Of a stretch of DNA of 36,664 nucleotides, positions 14,173 through 24,263 are shown piece after piece. Each line of letters begins with the position of its first letter. The first letter of the stretch is position 1. Source of the stretch: Hyphomicrobiaceae bacterium (GTDB taxonomy: Bacteria; Pseudomonadota; Alphaproteobacteria; Rhizobiales; Hyphomicrobiaceae); assembly GCA_025359005.1 (NCBI GenBank), contig JANYHP010000425.1, positions 1 through 36,664 of the forward strand, in the 5' to 3' direction. A program made the translations under genes and the position numbers. Under the pieces are notes generated by a model. The model was given only the letters and a program-made list of their open reading frames with translations. It ran no database searches and was not told the DNA's origin.

Positions 14173-14209
14173 AAAAAAAACGCCGGACGCCTGGGGAGGG
14201 CGTCCGGCG
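14173..14209 (-). terminator. Rho-independent terminator of the RTX gene; the hairpin is shared with the convergent + strand gene
   Basis: An 11-bp perfect stem cgccggacgcc(14181-14191)/ggcgtccggcg(14199-14209) is followed on the minus strand by an 8-nt U-run (A-run at 14173-14180 on the + strand). Confidence 0.8.
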
Positions 14210-14253
14210 CACGTTCATGCGCCGCCCGATTCGGGGCGGGCAGCGCACGAAAA

Positions 14254-15663
14254 TCAAACCAGCAGCATGCCCGCCTTGAGCAGGTCGGCGGCGGTGGTGT
14301 TGTGCACACCTTCGAGCACCGCGACGTCGACAAAGCTGCCACCGACCTTGGCCCACAAGTGTGATCCCTCGGCCGAGTCGACGAGCTTGACGTTCCCGGC
14401 ATTGGCCGCCTGGCTACCCTGGAAGAGCGCGTGCAGATCAAGCACGTCGTGGCCGTTGCCGAAGTCCTTGATGGTGTCGATGCCGGTGCCGACATCCTTC
14501 TTGCCCCACACGAACGTATCGTCGCCGGCGCCACCGAACAGCGTGTCGGCGCCCTTGCCGCCGCGGAGGATATCGTTGCCGGCCCCGCCGTCGAGAGCAT
14601 TGTTGCCCTTGTCGCCGATCAGCACGTCGTTAAAGGCACTGCCGCGGACTGCTTCGACGCCTGAGATGGTGTCGCTGCCGAAGCCGGTCGCAGTGTGCGC
14701 ATTGAGATTGACGTGCACGCCGTTGGTGGCGTTGGCGAAGTCGATCGTGTCGTAACCAGCCCCGCCCACCACCGTGTCGTTGCCGCCGCCGGCAAAGATA
14801 TAATCGTTACCCGCGCCGCCATTGACATGGTTGGTGCCCGTGCCGCCGTTGAGCACGTCGTCGCCCGTGCCGCCGAACAGCGTGTCGTTGCCGGCGCCGC
14901 CGTTGATATGATCGCGACCCGACAGGCCGATCAGCGTGTCATCGCCTGCGTTGCCGTTGATGGCGTCGTTATAGTCGTGCGCGCCGTGGCCGCCCTGGGT
15001 CGCATGCGCCATCATCGTTGCATTGGCCGTGCCGATGTCGATGGTGAAGTTGGCGTCGTGGAAGTTCTGGTCGCCGCCGTTCAGCAAATCTTCGAACGCG
15101 ACATGCATCTGCCCGGTGACGGGGTCCGTTGTCACCTTTGCGTGCTGGAAGCCATCGACGTTGTCGTTCGTGTTGGTGGTGAACAGGTTCGTCCAGTATT
15201 CGGTATGCACGTTCGACCACTGGTCGTTGGACGAGTGGAACGCCAACTGCATCGGCTGGCCCGAGTTCACGTTGGCCGGCGCGCCGTCGGAGGTGTTGAC
15301 GAGATGGAACGAACCGCCGTCCTTCATCATGCCCGCGATATCGGATTGACCGGCAGCGTTAGGCGCCACGAAGAAGCCGATGTGCTGGCCCGCTTTCAGC
15401 GCCATATCGAATGCAGACGGCCCACCCGCCACACCGCCGGCCGAAACGTTGCTGAACAGCAGCTGCGTCGAGGTGATTTTTCCCGTATCGTCGTAGGTAT
15501 ACATGCCAACGGTGTTGTGATAGCCGGCGCCAGAGCCGTCAAAGTGCACGTGCGCGGTCACGCTTTGGTGGATTGTCATCTTGTCGAGCGCGACCGACTG
15601 CGAGCGATTGCCCGCGTCGCCGATCAGCGTGTCGTTGCCGTTTGTGCCTTGAAATACTGCCAT
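14254..15663 (-). CDS. Secreted Ca2+-binding RTX protein with an N-terminal DUF4114-like domain (predicted T1SS substrate)
   Basis: About ten GGxGxDxL/I nonapeptides are present ([36 protein letters not shown]..., [26 protein letters not shown]). The N-terminal domain carries DUF4114-like marks ([45 protein letters not shown]). The C-terminus ([21 protein letters not shown]) resembles the T1SS C-terminal target domain. There is no N-terminal signal peptide. The ATG at 15663 has a GGAG RBS. Confidence 0.82.
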
Positions 15664-15834
15664 TTCACTCCGCACGTCCCGTGCGGCTCCCTGATCTGTC
15701 TTCGGTCTCGTTGCTGACGCCTGCTGGTGCCGGCGCTCCGTGCTCAGTCATACCTATGAAGTATCGAGGAAGTGCCCTATGCGGGTCGCTGCATTTGCAG
15801 CAATTGCCGGGCACTTCCTTAACGTTTGCGCGCC

Positions 15835-17268
15835 TTACCAGGCGATGCCCTGGTAGCCGGCGTTGTCGACCGGCAGCACCTTGTAGAGACGTGCCAAGTC
15901 GATCACCGGCTGGCCCGGACGACGGGCCTCGATCGCGCGGCGGAACTCGTCGGTGGCGTGACTGACGACGATGACATCAGCATTCGCGCAGAGCGTATCG
16001 GCGTCGGCGAGGCACATGCTTTCCATGCCGTCCATCACCCGCGCCTGGCTCGGGCAGGCGTGACGCACGTAGGCGATCTGGCCCAACAGGTTGTCGTTGA
16101 AGCGGAGGTTGGGATCGTAAACCTTGAGGCTCGCACCCTTGGCTTCCAGCATCGCCATCAATTCCAATGTGGGGCTTTCACGCAGATCGTCGGTGCCTGG
16201 CTTGAAAGTGACGCCGAGGAAACCGATGCGCTGTGCGCCGCGATCATCCATCAGCGCTTCGACGAGACGCGCGGCTTCGGCGATGTGGCGCTGATTGGTA
16301 ACGCCGAGCGATTGGATCAGCGGCAGATCGCAATCCTGCGCTTCGGCCAGATGAGCCACAGCGCGTACTTCCTTCGGCAGGCAAGAGCCGCCGAACGCGA
16401 AGCCGGGCTTGAGGTAATAAGGCGACAGGTTGAGCTTGGTATCGGTGACGAAGATGTTCATCACTTCGTGGCTGTCGATGTCGAGCGACTTGCAGAGACG
16501 GCCGATCTCGTTCCCGAACGCCACTTTCGTCGCGTGCCAGACGTTATCGACGTACTTGACCATTTCCGCGCCGGCGATCGAACAGAACTGGATGTTCTTG
16601 TCGACGGCCCCATAGATGCGCGACACGATCTCTTCGGTGCGCTTGTCCGAGGCGCCAACGACCGTTTTCGGTGGCGCGTAGAAATCGGCGACGGCGACGC
16701 CTTCGCGCAGGAATTCCGGATTGAACGCGATGCCGAAATCGAGGCCGAGCTTTTTGCCCGAGGCCGCAGCCACTTCGACGGCGACGCAATCGAGCGTGGT
16801 GCCGGGCGGTACCGAGCAACACAGCACGACGACGTGGAAGCCCTCTTTCATGGCCAGCGCCTGGCCTATGGCGCGGCTGGCCTGGCGCACGTAGGTGAGA
16901 TCGCAGCTACCGTCCGGCGCGGTCGGCGTGCCGACCGAGAGGAACGTCACGTCGGTGCCGAGCACGGCGGCAACCAGGTTCTGCGTCGCATCGATGCGAC
17001 CGAGACGGACTCCTTCGGCGAGCAGCTCGCCCAAGCGCTCTTCGACGATCGGCGAACGCCCTTCCTTAACGGCACGCACCTTCTCGAGGCTCACATCGAC
17101 GCCGGTCATGGAAAAGCCGAGATGGGCGAGGCATGCGCACGAAACGGCACCGACGTATCCAAGGCCGATCACCGAGATCGACGGCTTGGCTGCATCTGCG
17201 GTGGTGTTGATTGTCTGCTGGATGGACTGGCCGGCGTTGGCGCCGAATTGCTGATGCACGAGATTCAT
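15835..17268 (-). CDS. algD: GDP-mannose 6-dehydrogenase-like nucleotide-sugar dehydrogenase (AlgD-like)
   Basis: The Rossmann N-terminus ISVIGLGYVGAVSCACLAHLGFSMTGVDVS..KV..V..GRSPIVEE.LGELL resembles P. aeruginosa AlgD (GLGYVGAV...GVD...G.SPIVEPGL). The catalytic Cys region is FGGSCLPKEV. It lies next to an Alg8-like gene. UDP-glucose dehydrogenase cannot be fully excluded without a search. I prefer the start at 17268, which has a GGGAG RBS. Confidence 0.75.
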   Translation of the reverse strand: MNLVHQQFGANAGQSIQQTINTTADAAKPSISVIGLGYVGAVSCACLAHLGFSMTGVDVSLEKVRAVKEGRSPIVEERLGELLAEGVRLGRIDATQNLVAAVLGTDVTFLSVGTPTAPDGSCDLTYVRQASRAIGQALAMKEGFHVVVLCCSVPPGTTLDCVAVEVAAASGKKLGLDFGIAFNPEFLREGVAVADFYAPPKTVVGASDKRTEEIVSRIYGAVDKNIQFCSIAGAEMVKYVDNVWHATKVAFGNEIGRLCKSLDIDSHEVMNIFVTDTKLNLSPYYLKPGFAFGGSCLPKEVRAVAHLAEAQDCDLPLIQSLGVTNQRHIAEAARLVEALMDDRGAQRIGFLGVTFKPGTDDLRESPTLELMAMLEAKGASLKVYDPNLRFNDNLLGQIAYVRHACPSQARVMDGMESMCLADADTLCANADVIVVSHATDEFRRAIEARRPGQPVIDLARLYKVLPVDNAGYQGIAW

Positions 17269-17820
17269 TTCACTAAAACTCCCGAAATCCCCGTGGCCGC
17301 GCATGTGGCGACCGTTTGACACGTTCGAGACCGGGCCTGCACCCCTGGCGCGTCCCTTTGCGGGATCTCGCCGTTGCCGCGCTTGCCTTCCGAAGTCGGC
17401 CGCGCGGCATGTCGCTCGAACAAGGACACCATCTCAGGAAAAGCTCTGCGATCGCTGAAGCGAACCGATCAAATTGCTCCTATCTCGCTTTTTCCAAAAG
17501 TGATGTTGGATCGAGTCCTTCGTGCGAGCGTTCCAAAAGCCTTGTTTTCCCGGCAGCCTGAGCGCTCTTTGAACGCGAGGTCTATCCAGGGTCCACCCGG
17601 GCAAAAATTGGAAACAAATGCCGAAATCAGCGGCCTTGTTTCGACTGGGGAGGATCAGCGATACTTGGTCAGCGCGAATGCGCGCGGCCAAAATTCCGGA
17701 AGAACAAAAAGGGCGGAGAGCGCCGTACCGCGGGTCGCTTCAAAGCGGCACAGCCGCTTGCAAACCTTACACCACGTCATCAGGTAACGGTGGAATTGAA
17801 ACGCCGGCGCCGCGCACGCG

Positions 17821-19539
17821 TCAGAAGCCGAACACCGACACGACGAACCCGATGCTTGGGATCGTCAGCATCTCGGAATAGTAGATCACGCCGAGGAACA
17901 AGCTGGCGAACGAGATCCACGTCAGCCACATCGCCATGAACGTCTGCGCCTTGGCGAGCAGTGTATCGCCGCCCTGTCCCGACGACTGGTTGCCGCGGTT
18001 GGCCCAGCGCTGCTTGGACAACCGCCACAGCATGTAGACCTTCACCTGCGCATTAAGCTTCTGGTTGACCGGCAAAATCCACACGTAGTTGAGATCGACG
18101 CGTTCCGAATAAGTGAACAACGCCAGCGACAGCAGCATGCGCGTGATCGCCAGATAGAGAATGTACTGGACGATATACATCGCCCCGTTGCGCATCGCTT
18201 CCGACACCGCCAGCATCGGGCTGAACAGCGTCGTCCACATGGCGAGACGCTGGTCGACGACGCACCACCAGATAAAGAACGGCATACGCGCCGGCCCGAG
18301 CTTGATGGCGCGCTGCCCGTTGCGCAGCATGTTGCCCGACCAGCGTCGTAGGTTTTCCTCCATACGCGTCCAGCCCGAGCCCTCGACCACCTCGATGGTC
18401 GTGCCCGACGCATCCGGCACATAGGTCATCTTCACGCCCTTCGACAGCAGCGCATACCACGTGCTCTTGTCGTCGCCCGACAGGAAGCGGAACGTGCCCC
18501 AGAGCCAGTGATTGAGGAAGTCGGCTTCCTGCAGACGAATGAAATCTTCGGTGACGATATGATCGGCGCGAAACACACTCATGCGGCCGGTCAAGGTCAG
18601 CACCCGGTCAGACAGCGCGTGGCTTTGCATGGCGATGCGCCTCTGGGCAAAGCGCATATTCAGCCACGATTGCATCCACCACGGCCCGTGCACGACCACG
18701 CCTTCGTCGGTCGTCAGCGCGTGCAACTCCGGATCGATCGCAAACAGCGGGAAGCAGCGCTTGAGACACCCCGGATGCAGCACGAAATCGCCGTCCATGA
18801 ACACGACGAGATCATTTTTGCCGACGCCAGCACGCGACATGGCCCGCAGGATGAGCGCGATGGCCACGCGCTTGCCGGGCTGGTTCTGGCGGATGATCCG
18901 CAGCGTTACATCGAGATCCTTGGCAATGATCTTGAGATGGTTGGCGATTTTCAACTCGTCCGACAGTTCACTCGAACCGAGCCACAGCGTTGCCGGCACG
19001 CCAGCTTCACGGATTTGCTGACACAGCCCGCGCAATACCGACTCCGAGATCGCGCGATGCTCGCGAAACGTCGTCATCTGGACGTGGATGTGCTTGGGCC
19101 GCCAACCTGAGTTCCAGAGTGCTTCTGCTTGCGCGCGCTTTTTCGGATACGTGATAAGTCCGAACACCTTGGCGCGCAGGAAGTGGTTCATCCACCAGCC
19201 GTAACGCCAGATGCCGAGGATGCCGAGCACATACGTGACCTGGTTGAGCTCGACCGAATAGATCGGATTAGGGATCGTCATCAACATGCCGATGCAGCCG
19301 ACGAAGAACAGCGTCAGCTTCAGCATCACCAGCGGCGACCACTTCTCCCAGAACGGCAACGGCTCCGGCGCCGAGATATCGCCGATGATGAAGGGCGCGC
19401 GGCCGTCGGCATGCATTGCGCTCGCTGGACGCACCTCATGGGCGGGCTTGGTCCGCAACCGCGAGACCGGACGCACGCCACGCGGCGCCGCCAAAGGAGT
19501 GGCAATCTGCTGCTCCCGCGGTCGGCTCGCGAGTGTCAT
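17821..19539 (-). CDS. alg8: Alg8-like GT2 processive glycosyltransferase (mannuronan synthase-like)
   Basis: The protein is polytopic, with motifs I recall from Pseudomonas Alg8: GIWRYGWWMNHFLRA, VVFMDGDFVL, LTLTGRMSVFRA, FRFLSGDDKSTW, YVPDASGTTIE, LRRWSGNMLRN and VDQRLAMWTTLF. Its ATG overlaps the stop of the upstream gene (ATGA at 19536-19539). Confidence 0.8.
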   Translation of the reverse strand: MTLASRPREQQIATPLAAPRGVRPVSRLRTKPAHEVRPASAMHADGRAPFIIGDISAPEPLPFWEKWSPLVMLKLTLFFVGCIGMLMTIPNPIYSVELNQVTYVLGILGIWRYGWWMNHFLRAKVFGLITYPKKRAQAEALWNSGWRPKHIHVQMTTFREHRAISESVLRGLCQQIREAGVPATLWLGSSELSDELKIANHLKIIAKDLDVTLRIIRQNQPGKRVAIALILRAMSRAGVGKNDLVVFMDGDFVLHPGCLKRCFPLFAIDPELHALTTDEGVVVHGPWWMQSWLNMRFAQRRIAMQSHALSDRVLTLTGRMSVFRADHIVTEDFIRLQEADFLNHWLWGTFRFLSGDDKSTWYALLSKGVKMTYVPDASGTTIEVVEGSGWTRMEENLRRWSGNMLRNGQRAIKLGPARMPFFIWWCVVDQRLAMWTTLFSPMLAVSEAMRNGAMYIVQYILYLAITRMLLSLALFTYSERVDLNYVWILPVNQKLNAQVKVYMLWRLSKQRWANRGNQSSGQGGDTLLAKAQTFMAMWLTWISFASLFLGVIYYSEMLTIPSIGFVVSVFGF

Positions 19540-21152
19540 AGCACCGTGCTCATCCGCTGCCGAATGATGTTGTAGAGCCCGAAGTTCGACCGCTGCGGGA
19601 ACACAACGACCACGGGCAACCCCGACCGATAGCGCTCGGTATTGCCCACGCGTCGCAGATCCTGGAAGCCGATCACCACCTGCGCCGAGCGATCGACACT
19701 GCCGCGCCAGCGGTAGCCGGGGATCTGCGCGGTGTTCTGCTCTTGTACGAAGCCGGACGTGCGATCGATCTGCAGCACCTTGCCCTTCAGTGTTTCCGCG
19801 AGCGCCGGCACATACAGCAACACCTCGTCGCCGAGCCCCGTGCGCGCCACTTCGTCCTGATTAAGGAACGCCGTCACCTGCCGCTGTTCGCGTTGTTCAA
19901 ATACCGCGATGACGTCGCCCCGTCGCACCGTTCCCTGGTCGACGCGCTTGATTTCGAGAATGGTGCCATCGAACGGCGCGCGCACGGCGAGCCGCTTCTT
20001 GTGGTTGAGCAACGCCTCGTATTTGGATTGCGTCAGCGCGATCTCGTTTTCGGCCAGCTTGACCTGTGCCTCGAGCTGGCTGAGGTCGCCCACCATCGTC
20101 TGGCCGGTATAGAACCATTTGCCATCGCCGTGGGCGGCGATGTCGACGCGCGACTTGAGTTCGATCTGCTTGCTTTCCACCGTCTTGCGCAGGCCGACCG
20201 CCAGCTTCTCGGCGTTCTCCAGCAATGTATCGGTGGTGAAGCCTTTGCGATGCAGGATGGCGAGCCGCGCGTACTGCTGCTCGGCGGCCTGCAACTGCGC
20301 CTCGACGCTTTCCAGATCGATCTTGGCCTGGTCGAGGTTCTTGCCCTCGACCGTGGTCAGGCTTTTCATGCGCTCGAGTTCGTCGGTCAGCCGCTTGCGA
20401 TAGAATACCTGCTGCGCCCGACGTTCGTTGACGGCGATTTCAGCCAACTCGATATCGCGTTCGAGCTGATTGTCGGACACGTTGACGACGATCTCGCCGT
20501 TCTTGACCGCGTCACCCGGCTTGAACTTTTCCCACGCCACGCGGCCGTCGACCTGTGACGTGACTGTCTCGATCGGCGCGGTAATGACCGCCGTCTGCAC
20601 TTCCATGCGGTAGAAATTCGAATATGCCAGCAACCCCGTGTAGCTGAAGATGGTCAGACCCAGCACGGCGTAAAAGCCGGTCATCGCCACGGCCTTGACC
20701 GGCCAGCGCTTGACCGGCAGTTGGGCCAGTCCAGCCTTCTTCTTCGGCTCGAGCGATGCCGGTGTCACCGGCACGTCGATGCGCTGGATGGTATCGGCCA
20801 CCTCCGACATGGAGCCGCGCACCAACTCCTCGAGAAAGTGCGTCATCAATTCGGTTTCGCGCTCGCCGAGCTCGACGAAACGGCCCGCGAACATGCCCGT
20901 GTCCAGATTGTTCCGGACAACTTCGGCAACCGCCTCGAACGTGACGTCGAAGCCCTGGAACGGCAGCGTGCAGGTAAGTGGAATCTCGTCGCCAGGGGAG
21001 GGAATGTCGCCCGGAAAGTCCTCGACGCGGAAGCCGCCAAGGCTCCAATCGGCGCAGCGGACCTTGCTGCCGTCGAGCGCCACGAAAAACGGCGCACTGA
21101 CACGGTGATGCCGCCGCTGGTCTGGCCGCTCCCGTCTGACAGTGACACCCAT
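19536..21152 (-). CDS. alg44: PilZ-domain / HlyD-type membrane fusion protein (Alg44-like c-di-GMP receptor co-polymerase)
   Basis: The N-terminal PilZ motifs RRHHR (RxxxR) and DWSLGG (DxSxxG) are separated by 17 residues. A single TM follows (AVAMTGFYAVLGLTIFSYTGLLAY). The periplasmic part is HlyD-like, with a long coiled-coil (LERDIELAEIAVNERR...IDLESVEAQLQAAEQQYARL...LEAQVKLAENEIALTQSKYEAL) and beta-barrel/lipoyl segments (VRAPFDGTILEI). The gene symbol denotes architectural analogy only. Confidence 0.72.
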   Translation of the reverse strand: MGVTVRRERPDQRRHHRVSAPFFVALDGSKVRCADWSLGGFRVEDFPGDIPSPGDEIPLTCTLPFQGFDVTFEAVAEVVRNNLDTGMFAGRFVELGERETELMTHFLEELVRGSMSEVADTIQRIDVPVTPASLEPKKKAGLAQLPVKRWPVKAVAMTGFYAVLGLTIFSYTGLLAYSNFYRMEVQTAVITAPIETVTSQVDGRVAWEKFKPGDAVKNGEIVVNVSDNQLERDIELAEIAVNERRAQQVFYRKRLTDELERMKSLTTVEGKNLDQAKIDLESVEAQLQAAEQQYARLAILHRKGFTTDTLLENAEKLAVGLRKTVESKQIELKSRVDIAAHGDGKWFYTGQTMVGDLSQLEAQVKLAENEIALTQSKYEALLNHKKRLAVRAPFDGTILEIKRVDQGTVRRGDVIAVFEQREQRQVTAFLNQDEVARTGLGDEVLLYVPALAETLKGKVLQIDRTSGFVQEQNTAQIPGYRWRGSVDRSAQVVIGFQDLRRVGNTERYRSGLPVVVVFPQRSNFGLYNIIRQRMSTVL

Positions 21153-21292: not shown

Positions 21293-22696
21293 CTAAAGCG
21301 GGAATATCTTGCCCGGATTGAGAATGTCGTCGGGATCGAGCGCGGCCTTGATCGACCGCATGACAGCAATGGCCGGGCCGTGCTCTGCGGCCATATACCC
21401 AGCCTTGCCCTGCCCGATGCCGTGTTCGCCGGTACACGTCCCCTCCATGCGGATGGCACGCTCGGTAAGCCGCTTGACGAACGTCTTGACCGCGGCCACC
21501 TCCACCCCGTTGGCCGGATCGAAGGCAGGCGAGGTGTGGAAATTGCCGTCACCGACGTGGCCGACGATGGGGGCGACAATGCCCAGCTCCTTGATATCCT
21601 GCTCGGTTTCGAGCACGCATTCAGCCAGTCTTGAGATCGGCACACACACGTCGGTTGCAAAGACAACGCGGCCTGGCCAGGTGGATTTGACTGCCCAGTA
21701 AGCGTCGTGGCGCGCCTTCCACAGCCGGTTTCGGTCTTCCTCCCGCTCGGCCCAGTCAAAGCGGATGGCGCCTTCCGCTTCGGCGAGATCCTTAAACACC
21801 GCCACCTGGTCGCGCGCTGAGATGTCCGTCCCGTGGAATTCGAGGAACAGCGTCGGCGCCTCGTCGAGCCCGAGCTTGGAATGACCGTTCACGGCCTTGA
21901 TCTGGACCGCATCGAGCAACTCCATGCGAGCGATGCCGAGGCCGAGTTGTATCGATTGGATGACCGCGTTGCAGGCGCCTTCGATCGTCTTGAAGGGGCA
22001 GACTGCCGCCATGATGCGCTCGGGGATGCCATAAACACGAACGGTGAGTTCCGTGAACACGCCGAGCGTGCCTTCCGAGCCCACCAGCAACCGCGTCAGG
22101 TCATAGCCGGCCGATGACTTTCGAGCCCGCTGCCCGGTCTTGATCGTCGAACCGTCAGCCAACACCGCTGTCACGTTCAACACGTTCTCGCGCATCGTGC
22201 CGTAGCGCACCGCGTTGGTGCCGGACGCCCGGGTCGCCGCCATGCCGCCGATGGTGGCCCACTCGGCGCCCGGATCGACGGGGAAGAACAAGCCGCGATC
22301 GCGCAGATAGTCGTTCAATTGCTTGCGCGAGACGCCCGGCTCCACCACGCAGTCGAGATCGCGTTCGTTGACGGCGACGATCTTGTTCATCCGCGAGAAA
22401 TCGAGGCTGAGCCCGCCCTCCGCCGCATTGACGTGCCCTTCCAGGGACGTGCCCGCGCCGAACGGGATCACCGGCACCCGGTACTGTCGAGCAACCCGCA
22501 CGATATCGACCACCTCCGACGCCAGCTCGACGAAGATGACCGCATCCGGCGGCTGGTTGGGGATCCAGGTCAAGGTATGGCCGTGCTGCTGGCGTATAGC
22601 CTCCCCGGTCTGCAGCCGGTCGCCAAAGCGCTGGCGCAGCACCCCGATAGCTGTAGCCGTGTCTCGCGCCCGTCGTGCGCCGCTGTTGTCGTTCAT
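21293..22696 (-). CDS. FAD-binding oxidoreductase, GlcD / D-lactate dehydrogenase (cytochrome)-like
   Basis: The 467-aa protein has an FAD_binding_4-type N-terminal half (VIPFGAGTSLEGH, GGMAATRASGTNAVRYGTMRENVL) and an FAD-oxidase C-terminal half ending in GEHGIGQGKAGYM...LDPDDILNPGKIF. Confidence 0.82.
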   Translation of the reverse strand: MNDNSGARRARDTATAIGVLRQRFGDRLQTGEAIRQQHGHTLTWIPNQPPDAVIFVELASEVVDIVRVARQYRVPVIPFGAGTSLEGHVNAAEGGLSLDFSRMNKIVAVNERDLDCVVEPGVSRKQLNDYLRDRGLFFPVDPGAEWATIGGMAATRASGTNAVRYGTMRENVLNVTAVLADGSTIKTGQRARKSSAGYDLTRLLVGSEGTLGVFTELTVRVYGIPERIMAAVCPFKTIEGACNAVIQSIQLGLGIARMELLDAVQIKAVNGHSKLGLDEAPTLFLEFHGTDISARDQVAVFKDLAEAEGAIRFDWAEREEDRNRLWKARHDAYWAVKSTWPGRVVFATDVCVPISRLAECVLETEQDIKELGIVAPIVGHVGDGNFHTSPAFDPANGVEVAAVKTFVKRLTERAIRMEGTCTGEHGIGQGKAGYMAAEHGPAIAVMRSIKAALDPDDILNPGKIFPL

Positions 22697-22982
22697 CCCA
22701 GTCCCCTCGTCCAGCCGTCGCCCAGTGATCGTTCCCCGATGTTAGGCCCAACACCCATCCATCACAATCATCCAAGGCAACCATTGCCAAAGGCCAAACC
22801 TGCGCAGCCGCCACGAGACCTCTGACAAAAAACAGAATTCTCCCCTTGACGGAGGCATTGATGCCACATCGACGGAAATCCTTTCCGATCCCGTCCGAAA
22901 CTCGTCGCCTTTTGGCTATCGGTCGTCTAAGTTCCGCTCGTTTTCCATTCCCGGGGACAAACCATCTGTGAAGGAGTATCAC

Positions 22983-24263
22983 ATGATACGGAGGTTGTTT
23001 GTGGCGACCGCTGCCTTGCTGGCAGTCGGAGCTGCGACTGCTCAGGCTCAAGAGAATTGGGTCCTCTTGGGCTCCAAGAACGTTCTCCTGAGCGGCTCGA
23101 GCGATACGATTGATTTGAGCCAGGCCCGCGGCAAGTACAGCGCCCTGCGCGTGGTTGCTAAGCGCCGCGGCATCGAACTGAACAATATCGAAGTCGTTTA
23201 TAACGAAGGCAACGGTCACAACGAAAAGCGGGCCATCAACCTGCTGGACGGTGAGCGCACCCGCCCGATCAATCCCAGCAACGAGGGCCGCTTCGTCGAT
23301 GCCATCGGCTTCTGCTTCAAACCGCAGGGCTTGAGCGCCGTTGTTCCTGCCGTGATCGAAGTCTACGGCCGTCAGACCGAAGGCGACGCCCGCGCCACGC
23401 GGACAGCCGGACGCGGTATCAACAAGAGCGTTGCAGCCTGCCCCGGCGGCGCCGCAGCACCTGCTGCCGCTGGTACGGCCGCGCCTGTAACAGGCCCGAT
23501 CGCAGCCACCCCAACTTCGTCGGCCGCAACCACCGCCAAGCCCGGCACGCCGAGCGAAACTGGTGAAGTGCTGTTCAGCACGCAGGCCGTCGGCTTCGCC
23601 GTCGACCGCGATGTCATCCGCGTCGGCGCCGAGATCGGCAAGTTCGACAAGGTGCGCCTCCGCGTCCTCGACAACGACATCTTCATCAAGAGCATGAAGG
23701 TTGTGTATTCCAACGGCGAGTCGCAGGAAATTGCCTACAACGCCGACGTCAAGCGTGACAGCCGGACCCGGTGGCTCGACCTAAAGGGCGACCGCTTCAT
23801 CAAGGAAATCCAGCTGATCTATAATGCCAAGCCGAACGTACGCGGCCAGGCCTTCGTCGAGGTCTACGGCCAGTATGCCGAAGGCTGGCTCGGCCAGGCC
23901 GGGGAAGGCCGCAAGTACAACGCCGGCTTCGTGCTGCTCGGCGCCCAGACCGCTGGCTTCACCATCGACCGCAACGACGTGGTCAAGGTTGGCCGCAATG
24001 AAGGCGGCTTCAAGCGTCTTGAAGTGCGCGTGTTCGATCAGGCGATCACCCTGTTCGAAGTGCGCGTGCTCTACGGCAACGGTGAAGTCGACATCATCCC
24101 CGCCAACCGCACCAAGGTAGAAGCAGGCGGCCGTTTCGCCGTCGACCTGAAGGGCGGCACGCGCATCGTCCAGGAAATCCGTCCGACCTACCGGACGCGC
24201 ATCTTCCAGCAGGGCAGCGTCGCCAAGGGCCGCGCCGTCGTGCAGTTCTGGGGCCAGCACTAA
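22983..24263 (+). CDS. Exported protein with three tandem ~110-aa repeats (DUF2541/YaaI-like pattern)
   Basis: RBS 'aaggag' lies at 22971 and the ATG at 22983. The signal peptide is MIRRLFVATAALLAVGAATAQA|QE. Three copies follow the pattern LLG/xxQxVGFxxDRDxIxVGxxxGKFxxLRxxVxxxxIxxxxxxVxYxNGExxxI...LKGxxRxIxEIxxxY...VxxYGQ. Copy 1 is separated from copy 2 by an Ala/Pro/Thr-rich linker. Confidence 0.65.
   Translation: MIRRLFVATAALLAVGAATAQAQENWVLLGSKNVLLSGSSDTIDLSQARGKYSALRVVAKRRGIELNNIEVVYNEGNGHNEKRAINLLDGERTRPINPSNEGRFVDAIGFCFKPQGLSAVVPAVIEVYGRQTEGDARATRTAGRGINKSVAACPGGAAAPAAAGTAAPVTGPIAATPTSSAATTAKPGTPSETGEVLFSTQAVGFAVDRDVIRVGAEIGKFDKVRLRVLDNDIFIKSMKVVYSNGESQEIAYNADVKRDSRTRWLDLKGDRFIKEIQLIYNAKPNVRGQAFVEVYGQYAEGWLGQAGEGRKYNAGFVLLGAQTAGFTIDRNDVVKVGRNEGGFKRLEVRVFDQAITLFEVRVLYGNGEVDIIPANRTKVEAGGRFAVDLKGGTRIVQEIRPTYRTRIFQQGSVAKGRAVVQFWGQH

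Follow-up and report, generated by a model that had tools for sequence, protein, structure and literature searches.

A four-gene Alg8/Alg44-family locus in a Hyphomicrobiaceae bacterium as a candidate c-di-GMP-gated exopolysaccharide module

Introduction

Can the synthase core of alginate production operate without the scaffold, porin and modification proteins that accompany it in the well-studied producers? Alginate biosynthesis is known almost entirely from Pseudomonas and Azotobacter, in which AlgK/AlgE and the periplasmic modification machine are deemed integral. The question is raised by a minus-strand locus of contig JANYHP010000425.1, which comes from an uncultured member of the Hyphomicrobiaceae living in soil or water. 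The stretch of DNA analysed, hereafter the window, is the entire contig of 36,664 bp, with a GC content of 60–69%. An earlier note on this DNA had described three of its genes as a stripped-down alginate-synthase core (Alg44-like, Alg8-like and AlgD-like) devoid of the usual export and modification genes.

The interpretation of the locus as an alginate-synthase core was supported by comparisons with the Alg8 and AlgD families, with several refinements. On balance, we favour the reading that the locus encodes a four-gene, cyclic di-GMP (c-di-GMP)-gated, synthase-dependent exopolysaccharide module of the Alg8/Alg44 family, in which an AlgD-like enzyme would supply GDP-mannuronate, the product would be an unmodified polymannuronate leaving the cell through TolC, and an RTX protein would serve as a lectin. 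The central idea extends known families in an expected way, and whatever goes past homology we infer from sequence. What goes beyond the earlier interpretation is a fourth conserved gene, a lineage-level association with type I secretion system (T1SS) genes and a polysaccharide lyase of family 14 (PL14), and a specific proposal for the outer-membrane route.

Results and Discussion

The synthase and its relatives

The putative synthase, a glycosyltransferase of family 2 (GT2) with 572 aa, matched Pfam Glyco_tranf_2_3 with an E value of 6e-29. The motifs LTGRMSVFRA (aa 316–325), FLSGDDKSTW (352–361) and LRRWSGNMLRN (397–407), on which the earlier note had based its Alg8 assignment, were all found in the translation, and the ATGA overlap it had reported with the preceding gene was likewise found in the sequence. 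In an alignment of 21 family members spanning 30–86% identity, GKR (222–224), DGD (249–251, with D249/D251), LTGRxS (316–321), GDDKS (355–359) and RWxGNMxR (399–406) were invariant, and hydrophobic segments at 67–93, 454–478 and 533–560 flank the GT domain. More than 2000 relatives were present in a 90% clustered database, the best 120 of which (65–91% identical) came from Hyphomicrobium/Hyphomicrobiaceae metagenome-assembled genomes; relatives carry the JGI names 'mannuronan synthase' or 'glycosyltransferase Alg8'. An exhaustive phmmer search among 1.84 billion cluster representatives retrieved only 485 representatives at E ≤ 1e-3 and did not reach the huge cellulose-synthase-like families, and hence the family is small and discrete.

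No PDB entry was found for the Alg8 of Pseudomonas or Azotobacter, and the canonical reference used in place of Pseudomonas was a plasmid-borne alg operon of Loktanella salsilacus, located by a tblastn search of PLSDB with the GT2 protein. The Loktanella synthase and its counterpart in the window share 35% identity over 451 aa (E 7e-88), with LTGRMSVFRA and GDDKSTW identical in both. A cellulose-synthase-type GT2 was rejected, as Escherichia coli BcsA gave a BLASTP E value of only 0.1 and an hhalign probability of 12% against the family profile. The expectation that the GT2 would group with Alg8 and not with cellulose synthase was thus upheld in pairwise comparisons (E 7e-88 vs 0.1) in which BcsA was the sole cellulose comparator. 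By the tests run, the GT2 is a member of the Alg8 family, an assignment based on sequence similarity.

The reference operon lies on plasmid NZ_CP072995.1 (L005 7657–19347; L087 1–6891) and is a complete alginate-type operon, although most of its genes are annotated merely as hypothetical. In turn, these encode a nucleotide-sugar dehydrogenase, the GT2, a 347-aa protein, a GDP-mannose pyrophosphorylase-like protein, a beta-helix protein (AlgG-like), an MBOAT protein (AlgI), an ALGX-domain protein, one more protein, a second ALGX-domain protein, AlgF, a 905-aa protein and an alginate lyase.

Two variations within the synthase family were observed. Residues 1–60 of the window protein form a Pro/Ala/Arg-rich N-terminal extension that is shared by its closest relatives and lacking in most family members; it is probably translated, since the MTL start is kept in an 85%-identical relative. 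Many Alg8-family representatives are 880–960 aa long, with a C-terminal extension of ∼400 aa (P0242, P0248, P0251, P0268), and that of P0248 gave a weak match to the beta-helix family Pect-lyase_RHGA_epim (E 1e-4), a hint of natural fusions between the synthase and an epimerase or a lyase.

When 185,579 species genomes were scanned with a pattern derived from the GT2 alignment, encoded relatives were detected in at least 593 of them, and the clade is therefore widespread. Neighbourhoods were surveyed at 83 loci, comprising the best 80 of the at least 593 (≥49% identity), two metagenomic relatives and the window, using tblastn with reference proteins and all-against-all clustering of open reading frames (ORFs). 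The best 80 came from Hyphomicrobiaceae, Filomicrobium, Parvibaculaceae, Anderseniella, Roseibium/Labrenzia (including R. denhamense and the cultured R. album CECT 5095), Reyranella aquatilis, two roseobacters, Colwellia, Kangiella, Bermanella, Halopseudomonas and Porticoccaceae. The Alg44-like gene was placed directly upstream of alg8 at 78 of the 83 loci and an AlgD-like gene within 10 kb of alg8 at 50, while AlgA-like GDP-mannose pyrophosphorylase genes were present at 17 related loci.

Two architectures were distinguished. In type A, found in Hyphomicrobiaceae including the window, the order is alg44-like, alg8, algD and a gene for an RTX/DUF4114 protein, downstream of which there are often genes for additional RTX proteins, an ABC transporter for type I secretion with its adaptor and a PL14 polysaccharide lyase. 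The PL14 gene was located downstream of the cluster at 14 Hyphomicrobiaceae loci and the type I secretion ABC/membrane-fusion protein (MFP) genes at 9–13. Type A is shortest in the window and in the three loci most closely related to it (L001, L007 and L008; 84–86% identical). Type B, found in Roseibium, Colwellia, Kangiella and others, consists of RTX/DUF4114, alg44-like, alg8, a DUF1574-like gene (440 aa), a Sel1-repeat (AlgK-like) gene, an MBOAT (AlgI-like) gene, a gene for a 650-aa protein and one for a hybrid histidine kinase. The extra families that recurred among the loci were a sigma-54-type response regulator, AlgA-like, Sel1, MBOAT, histidine kinase, T1SS ABC/MFP and PL14. A type B cluster was observed in R. 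album CECT 5095 (L053 6170–21473) and at ∼25 similar loci, often with the sigma-54-type response regulator nearby, and its presence in a cultured organism makes it a convenient experimental entry point.

Smaller sets were also seen. The locus L003 (10001–12998) carries an Alg8-family GT2 with a 507-aa PilZ adaptor (22% identical to the window protein), and L003, L004 (10001–11853) and L010 are further minimal pairs without a linked dehydrogenase, RTX or modification gene, the pair at L010 being followed by 10 kb of sequence without algD. The two-gene core therefore also circulates alone.

The dehydrogenase and the identity of the polymer

The dehydrogenase ORF (15835–17322, 495 aa) contains all three UDPG_MGDP_dh domains of Pfam (N, central and C). 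Its start is most likely M19 (nt 17268), because a conserved GGGAG Shine-Dalgarno-like block precedes ATGAAT there in an alignment of the spacer from the window and three relatives. The best PDB match was AlgD of Pseudomonas aeruginosa (1mfz; E 7e-104, 351 bits), aligned end to end (residues 49–495 to 3–436), whereas the best UDP-glucose dehydrogenase in the PDB scored 259 bits and fell short of the C-terminus. The AlgD alignment takes in both GI(A/C)W at the C-terminus and FGGSCLPK, the latter being the very motif that surrounds Cys268 in P. aeruginosa GDP-mannose dehydrogenase (GMD) (PMC10740432). The protein is also 40% identical to the algD product of the Loktanella operon. A UDP-glucose dehydrogenase identity is disfavoured by these PDB comparisons, and the AlgD-like assignment, made in the earlier note from its N-terminus, holds on the pairwise scores and the end-to-end alignment. 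The dehydrogenase is thus, by the tests run on its sequence, a member of the AlgD/GMD family.

If the dehydrogenase were to make UDP-glucuronate, for example, the polymer would not be based on mannuronate and could be glucuronan-like or mixed. The best named NCBIfam models were indeed UDP-glucose dehydrogenases (AglM and TuaD), all far under their cutoffs, and PL14, as classified in CAZy, includes glucuronan lyases as well as alginate lyases. NCBIfam is uninformative for this protein, however, because only sub-threshold UDP-sugar dehydrogenase models were returned and no GDP-mannose dehydrogenase model was among the matches. Given that the best solved relative is the P. aeruginosa GMD, aligned along its length with both motifs, that the enzyme is 40% identical to the algD product of a complete alg operon and that AlgA-like genes accompany related clusters, a polymer not based on mannuronate is considered highly improbable.

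With the start at nt 17268, the gap between alg8 and algD is ∼550 bp. A spacer of this length is specific to the closest relatives of the window, and it measures ∼170 bp in other Hyphomicrobiaceae loci. A block at ∼17431–17480 (AATTTGA..GTT..TTTCA.CGA) is conserved in the four genomes and, judging from this conservation, may be an internal promoter or regulatory site for the algD-like gene. Neither a consensus terminator nor an Rfam match was found in the spacer (17269–17820).

The PilZ-EmrA-type adaptor and the outer-membrane route

The gene upstream of alg8 encodes a protein with a Pfam PilZ domain at residues 12–107 (E 7e-5) and matches to HlyD_3/HlyD_D23/Biotin_lipoyl; 577 relatives, from Hyphomicrobiaceae, were detected. 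The domain families to which the earlier note had pointed were all matched by profile searches, i.e., PilZ, HlyD_3/HlyD_D23/Biotin_lipoyl, Glyco_tranf_2_3 and the three UDPG_MGDP_dh domains. R13 and R17 (RxxxR) and D35, S37 and G40 (DxSxxG), which constitute the c-di-GMP-binding motifs as defined for PilZ proteins (PMC8461298), were invariant in 20 homologues and predominant in 79.

The periplasmic part is of a different kind from that expected of Alg44. A profile search matched it to EmrA (4tko) with an E value of 3e-5, and the AlphaFold2 (AF2) model of the protein (pLDDT 72.5) comprised a PilZ barrel (23–94), a transmembrane (TM) helix (152–180), a lipoyl-like domain, hairpin helices at 228–302, 308–340 and 356–388, and a beta-barrel (425–520). 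A Foldseek search with this model returned EmrA of the EmrAB-TolC pump as the best match (8zar, E 8e-18), followed by MacA, AcrA and MexA, and also retrieved 4tko. The predicted helix-turn-helix tip carries R296, L300 and T307, and these residues together with G304 of the tip sequence RLAILHRKGFTT were invariant in a close 20-sequence alignment. Among 79 cluster-linked homologues from 79 genomes, 74 could be aligned at the tip, with R conserved in 68/74, L in 66/74 and T/S in 49/74. The pattern RxxxLxxxxxxS/T (RLS/RLT) is the TolC-tip-binding motif of MacA, AcrA and HlyD (PMC3391258). The predicted hairpin and its tip motif, by analogy with those adaptors, suggest a synthase-adaptor-TolC route.

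The Loktanella operon encodes, in the Alg44 position, a 347-aa protein with only marginal similarity to the window protein (E 0.07), and the median length in the window clade is 542 aa; the clade therefore has an insertion of ∼160 residues that forms the predicted hairpin. Two features of canonical Alg44 were lacking, namely, sequence homology of the PilZ domain and a short periplasmic domain without a long hairpin. The description of this protein as Alg44-like in the earlier note accordingly stands for the PilZ/TM/membrane-fusion layout beside alg8, but not for close kinship with Alg44, in view of the extra hairpin and the lack of a match to 4RT0. It probably works like Alg44 but is a distinct, longer subfamily and is better called a PilZ-EmrA-type adaptor.

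Absence of linked export and modification genes

Nearly every sizeable ORF of the window was scanned against Pfam. Among the window ORFs, these scans detected neither an AlgK-type Sel1/TPR scaffold nor an Alginate_exp porin, and no beta-helix epimerase, ALGX, MBOAT, AlgF or alginate-lyase domain. Searches by tblastn with Loktanella AlgG, I, J, X, F and L were negative for the window and for the Hyphomicrobiaceae-type loci. The absence of algK/E/G/X/L/I/J/F, which the earlier note had reported for the vicinity of the locus, thus extends over the whole 36.7-kb contig. The possibility that a full alg operon lies just outside was also checked; none was present within 15 kb on either side or, in syntenic relatives on contigs of 0.1–1.6 Mb, within 10 kb. 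The absence of a lyase holds for the contig and does not hold for the lineage, as the fuller Hyphomicrobiaceae clusters carry the PL14 gene.

It could still be that the operon is split, so that a true alginate or modified mannuronan is made and an epimerase (AlgG or a secreted AlgE-type enzyme), acetylation proteins, AlgK/AlgE export proteins or lyases act in trans. The window is one 36.7-kb contig of a genome, sister Hyphomicrobiaceae loci have the PL14 lyase a few kb downstream, the type B relatives (Roseibium, Colwellia) keep Sel1/AlgK-like and MBOAT/AlgI-like genes, and even in Pseudomonas algC is unlinked (PMC8461298). Against such a split, the neighbourhood survey of the 83 loci found no AlgG, AlgX/J, AlgF or AlgL-like gene within 10 kb of the Hyphomicrobiaceae-type clusters. 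The partner genes conserved there encode RTX proteins, type I secretion components and PL14, and the adaptor would have no need of its TolC-type tip motif if export ran through AlgK/AlgE. We therefore regard a split operon as distinctly unlikely and retain the unmodified, TolC-exported polymannuronate as the preferred interpretation.

A fourth gene encoding an RTX/DUF4114 protein

The locus had been presented as a trio. The three genes are real, but the trio is not the complete unit, since a fourth conserved gene (14254–15675) encoding an RTX/DUF4114 protein had been overlooked. The product consists of a predicted N-terminal beta-sandwich (∼aa 30–225, ∼200 aa, DUF4114), ∼11 GxGxD nonapeptide repeats (aa 260–410) and a C-terminal tail of the T1SS type. 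HemolysinCabind was matched in six stretches (E 2e-37) and the NCBIfam T1SS C-terminal target domain with 20.3 bits (cutoff 17.6); judged by eye, there is no N-terminal signal peptide. The DUF4114 signature FEDxxxGGDxxFxD is clear in the N-domain alignment, and the Roseibium orthologue scores 45.7 bits for DUF4114. The AF2 model of the N-domain, built from 6 sequences (5 homologues from a protein-database search), is a beta-sandwich of moderate confidence (pLDDT 69, pTM 0.70). An identity as an AlgE-type epimerase or known lyase was not borne out, as no Beta_helix, NosD, Pect-lyase_RHGA_epim or known lyase domain was detected in the protein.

In the mannose-binding protein of Acanthamoeba, the DUF4114 beta-sandwich binds mannose-agarose (PMC11934332), and Ca2+-dependent exopolysaccharide binding has been proposed for the DUF4114 domain of Myxococcus PilY1.1 (PMC9109919). 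A secreted, Ca2+-dependent, lectin-like matrix protein is the most economical reading of the window protein, because these DUF4114 leads are combined with ∼11 Ca2+-binding nonapeptides and a T1SS tail. By this analogy, it is probably a lectin-like matrix protein for a mannose-configured polymer, which is the weakest step of the proposal.

The non-RTX N-domain was encoded beside alg44-alg8 on the same strand at 47 of the 83 loci, with homologues 27–38% identical in taxa as far apart as Roseibium, Reyranella and Pseudomonadales. This recurrence, across alpha- and gammaproteobacteria, argues against a chance neighbourhood. Instead of a lectin-like protein, the gene might nevertheless be an unrelated neighbour that codes for an adhesin or a toxin-like protein, or its product might be a lyase or epimerase with the polymer as its substrate. 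RTX proteins are common in these taxa, Azotobacter secretes mannuronan epimerases that bear RTX repeats, the fold search with the N-domain gave no significant match, and weak, non-significant jelly-roll and PL7 hits appeared in the Foldseek list. Set against this are the same-strand recurrence of the N-domain and the lack of a detectable beta-helix A-module or known lyase domain. Such alternatives to a lectin are judged unlikely, although they are to be taken seriously.

An RTX protein encoded downstream of the cluster at L002 (13482–16070) has a His/Asp-rich N-terminus and, before its RTX repeats, a perfectly periodic Ala/Glu/Lys tandem repeat, AAEKAAAEAAAKAEAEK, in ∼17 copies.

Proposed mechanism and points that weigh against it

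In the proposed mechanism, the AlgD-like enzyme would oxidise GDP-mannose, supplied by housekeeping enzymes encoded elsewhere, to GDP-mannuronate, as orthology and the AlgA-like genes at 17 loci imply. The Alg8-like GT2, to judge from its family and its invariant catalytic motifs, would polymerise GDP-mannuronate and thread the chain across the inner membrane. Binding of c-di-GMP to the PilZ domain of the Alg44-like partner, whose motifs are intact, would presumably gate the synthase. The EmrA-type hairpin with its RxxxLxxxxxxT tip is predicted, from the structural model, the motif and genetic precedent, to dock with a TolC-family channel encoded elsewhere. The product would be a plain, unacetylated poly-beta-1,4-mannuronate or a close derivative, an unmodified polymer being predicted because no epimerase or acetylation genes are linked. 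The RTX/DUF4114 protein, presumably co-transcribed, would exit through a T1SS encoded elsewhere and bind the polymer at the cell surface in a Ca2+-dependent, lectin-like manner, and here the scheme is at its weakest. The PL14 lyase and T1SS ABC/MFP genes that follow the same cluster in Hyphomicrobiaceae loci support a polyuronate.

Several observations weigh against this scheme. The family membership was judged from the alg-operon proteins of Loktanella and from source annotations, and the PilZ domain of Alg44 (PDB 4RT0/4RT1) was not retrieved at E ≤ 1 either by phmmer or with a 20-sequence profile. No TolC/OEP gene was found beside the cluster in the window or at any of the 83 loci. The hairpin is suggestive and not decisive, because the type B relatives with the same hairpin keep an AlgK-like Sel1 protein. 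For the RTX protein of the window, the DUF4114 (PF13448) score is marginal (27.6 bits vs a cutoff of 27), and Foldseek with the N-domain model gave no significant match (best E 0.06, TM ≤0.2). Epimerases, acetylases or a porin could, moreover, be encoded elsewhere in the genome, since the window is a whole contig.

Comparison with known systems

The three families of the core (AlgD, Alg8 and Alg44) are the same as those of the P. aeruginosa and Azotobacter vinelandii alginate systems, with DxD, GDDKS, RWxGNMxR and FGGSCLPK shared. In both cases, the synthase is paired with a PilZ-TM-membrane-fusion partner containing RxxxR and DxSxxG, and this partner, by prediction in the case of the window, senses c-di-GMP in place of the synthase. 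In contrast to the 12-gene algD operon of Pseudomonas and Azotobacter, the window has the order alg44-alg8-algD and is devoid of AlgK, E, G, X, L, I, J, F and A. It also differs in the 538-aa adaptor with a ∼160-residue hairpin and a TolC-type tip and in the RTX/DUF4114 gene.

Atypical environmental alginate operons without algKE and algGXLIJF were noted in a purely computational survey by Bundalovic-Torma et al. (2020) (PMC7112194), and the window locus falls in its class of 'atypical alginate operons.' The text consulted of this survey contains no description of a Hyphomicrobiaceae cluster, a long-hairpin adaptor, an RTX/DUF4114 partner or an export route. The suggestion that no such system had been characterised in this lineage therefore needs qualification; no paper on a Hyphomicrobium system was found, but operons lacking algKE/algGXLIJF had already been recorded (PMC7112194). 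Literature searches for Hyphomicrobium, Roseibium, Colwellia, Reyranella, Filomicrobium and the 'alginate-like' polymers of granular sludge returned no relevant paper, and none was found on the RTX/DUF4114 partner or the export route.

A precedent for export exists in Sinorhizobium meliloti, which belongs to the same order as the window organism. Its GT2 BgsA and HlyD-type BgsB need TolC for the production of mixed-linkage glucan, for which a tripartite complex was proposed, and a cyanobacterial cellulose synthase-HlyD-TolC system is cited in the same work (PMC13438883). The BgsBA system likewise involves a bicistronic HlyD-type adaptor and GT2, activation by c-di-GMP, no dedicated porin gene and an unlinked TolC, a mode which for the window is proposed only. 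It differs in that BgsA is cellulose-synthase-like, binds c-di-GMP on its own C-terminus and uses UDP-glucose to form a neutral product, that BgsB has no PilZ domain and that the bgs operon has no linked dehydrogenase or RTX gene.

Like the EmrA, MacA and HlyD adaptors, the window adaptor is predicted to combine a lipoyl domain, a long alpha-hairpin and a beta-barrel, with the RxxxLxxxxxxS/T pattern at the tip and EmrA as the best match in both structure and sequence. Unlike them, it includes a cytoplasmic PilZ domain as a fusion, and its partner is a glycosyltransferase instead of an MFS or ABC transporter.

Azotobacter AlgE1-7 are secreted mannuronan C5-epimerases with RTX-type repeats, and the Rap/Ply proteins of Rhizobium are secreted by PrsDE. 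The RTX protein of the window resembles both groups as a predicted Ca2+-binding, type I-secreted protein with a functional tie to an acidic exopolysaccharide, although it has neither a beta-helix A-module nor a glycanase domain and its N-module is a predicted DUF4114 beta-sandwich.

Significance

An Alg8/Alg44/AlgD core thus circulates widely without the scaffold, porin and modification parts, and the locus suggests a testable alternative exit, namely, TolC reached through an EmrA-like adaptor with an RLT tip. If the proposal is correct, acidic polyuronates would join mixed-linkage glucan and cyanobacterial cellulose among the polymers that use the recently proposed synthase-adaptor-TolC mode. 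Nature would also have provided, in this locus, the genes for a polymannuronate without epimerisation or acetylation, a material of biotechnological value as a substrate for in-vitro epimerisation. The abundant Hyphomicrobiaceae would become candidate makers of uronic-acid matrix polymers in biofilms, and the RTX/DUF4114 partner would form a new polysaccharide/matrix-protein pair.

A bolder version of the proposal is put forward tentatively, being in our view doubtful as a whole. According to it, the locus would represent an undescribed type of polyuronate secretion in which a long-hairpin PilZ adaptor couples an Alg8-type synthase directly to TolC in a c-di-GMP-gated tripartite conduit resembling an efflux pump, bypassing AlgK/AlgE. 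The pure polymannuronate would then be organised at the cell surface by a dedicated, type I-secreted Ca2+/DUF4114 lectin, a protein-mediated substitute for the gelation of guluronate blocks with Ca2+, and such a system would occur widely among Alpha- and Gammaproteobacteria of soil, wastewater and the sea, in at least 593 species genomes.

Gene layout and genomic context

The features of the locus are collected in Table 1. The three minus-strand ORFs of the earlier note (19536–21152, 17821–19539 and 15835–17322) were borne out by the ORF listing. The stop of the alg44-like gene and the start of the alg8-like gene overlap in an ATGA at 19536–19539, directly visible in GTGCTATGACACTC, and from this sequence the two genes are read as translationally coupled. 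Apart from the terminator in Table 1, the minus strand has no strong site of this kind from 13.5 to 23.2 kb, and the predicted unit is thus one of four genes, closed by the terminator after the RTX/DUF4114 gene. No Rfam family was found at gathering thresholds anywhere in the window, by which a c-di-GMP riboswitch is rejected, and near-identical DNA was absent among PLSDB plasmids.

Table 1. Predicted features of the Alg8/Alg44-family locus (positions in the window).
Feature	Position	Strand	Remarks
Alg44-like co-polymerase/adaptor, 538 aa	19536–21152	minus	PilZ, one TM helix and a periplasmic EmrA-type membrane-fusion domain
PilZ domain, aa 12–107	20832–21119	minus	RRHHR (RxxxR) at nt 21102–21116; DWSLGG (DxSxxG) at nt 21033–21050
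Predicted alpha-helical hairpin of ∼160 residues, aa 228–388	19989–20471	minus	AF2 secondary structure
Hairpin tip motif RLAILHRKGFTT, aa 296–307	20232–20267	minus	Fits RxxxLxxxxxxS/T
Alg8-family GT2 synthase, 572 aa	17821–19539	minus	Glyco_tranf_2_3; DGD at nt 18787–18795
Spacer between synthase and dehydrogenase, ∼550 bp	17269–17820	minus	Conserved block at ∼17431–17480 and GGGAG ribosome-binding site
AlgD-like GDP-mannose 6-dehydrogenase, 477 aa from M19	15835–17268	minus	FGGSCLPK at nt 16372–16395
RTX/DUF4114 protein, 473 aa	14254–15675	minus	Pfam HemolysinCabind and, marginally, DUF4114; NCBIfam T1SS C-terminal target domain
Predicted intrinsic terminator	14180–14210	minus	12-bp stem with 10 G-C pairs, followed by a T7 run

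The flanking genes are housekeeping genes. The low-coordinate flank (1–14 kb), transcriptionally downstream, encodes a GNAT acetyltransferase, DUF937 and SnoaL-like proteins, a GCS2 ligase, a ParA-like ATPase, RuvC, RuvA, a fused TRAP permease and an RluD-type pseudouridine synthase. The high-coordinate flank (21–36 kb), transcriptionally upstream, encodes a GlcD-like FAD oxidase, a DUF2541 protein, an SLT_2 lytic transglycosylase, an NMT1/ABC transporter, a YfgM-like TPR_21 protein, BamB, an Ldh_2 dehydrogenase, a DUF4424 protein and a second GNAT protein.

The GlcD-like FAD oxidase gene (21293–22696, minus) is on the same strand as the alg44-like gene and lies 141 bp upstream of it, and beyond it is a divergent gene for the 431-aa DUF2541 protein (22968–24263, plus). 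Both genes are syntenic with the cluster at ∼20 Hyphomicrobiaceae loci and are absent from other taxa, and their linkage probably reflects a conserved neighbourhood and not a shared function.

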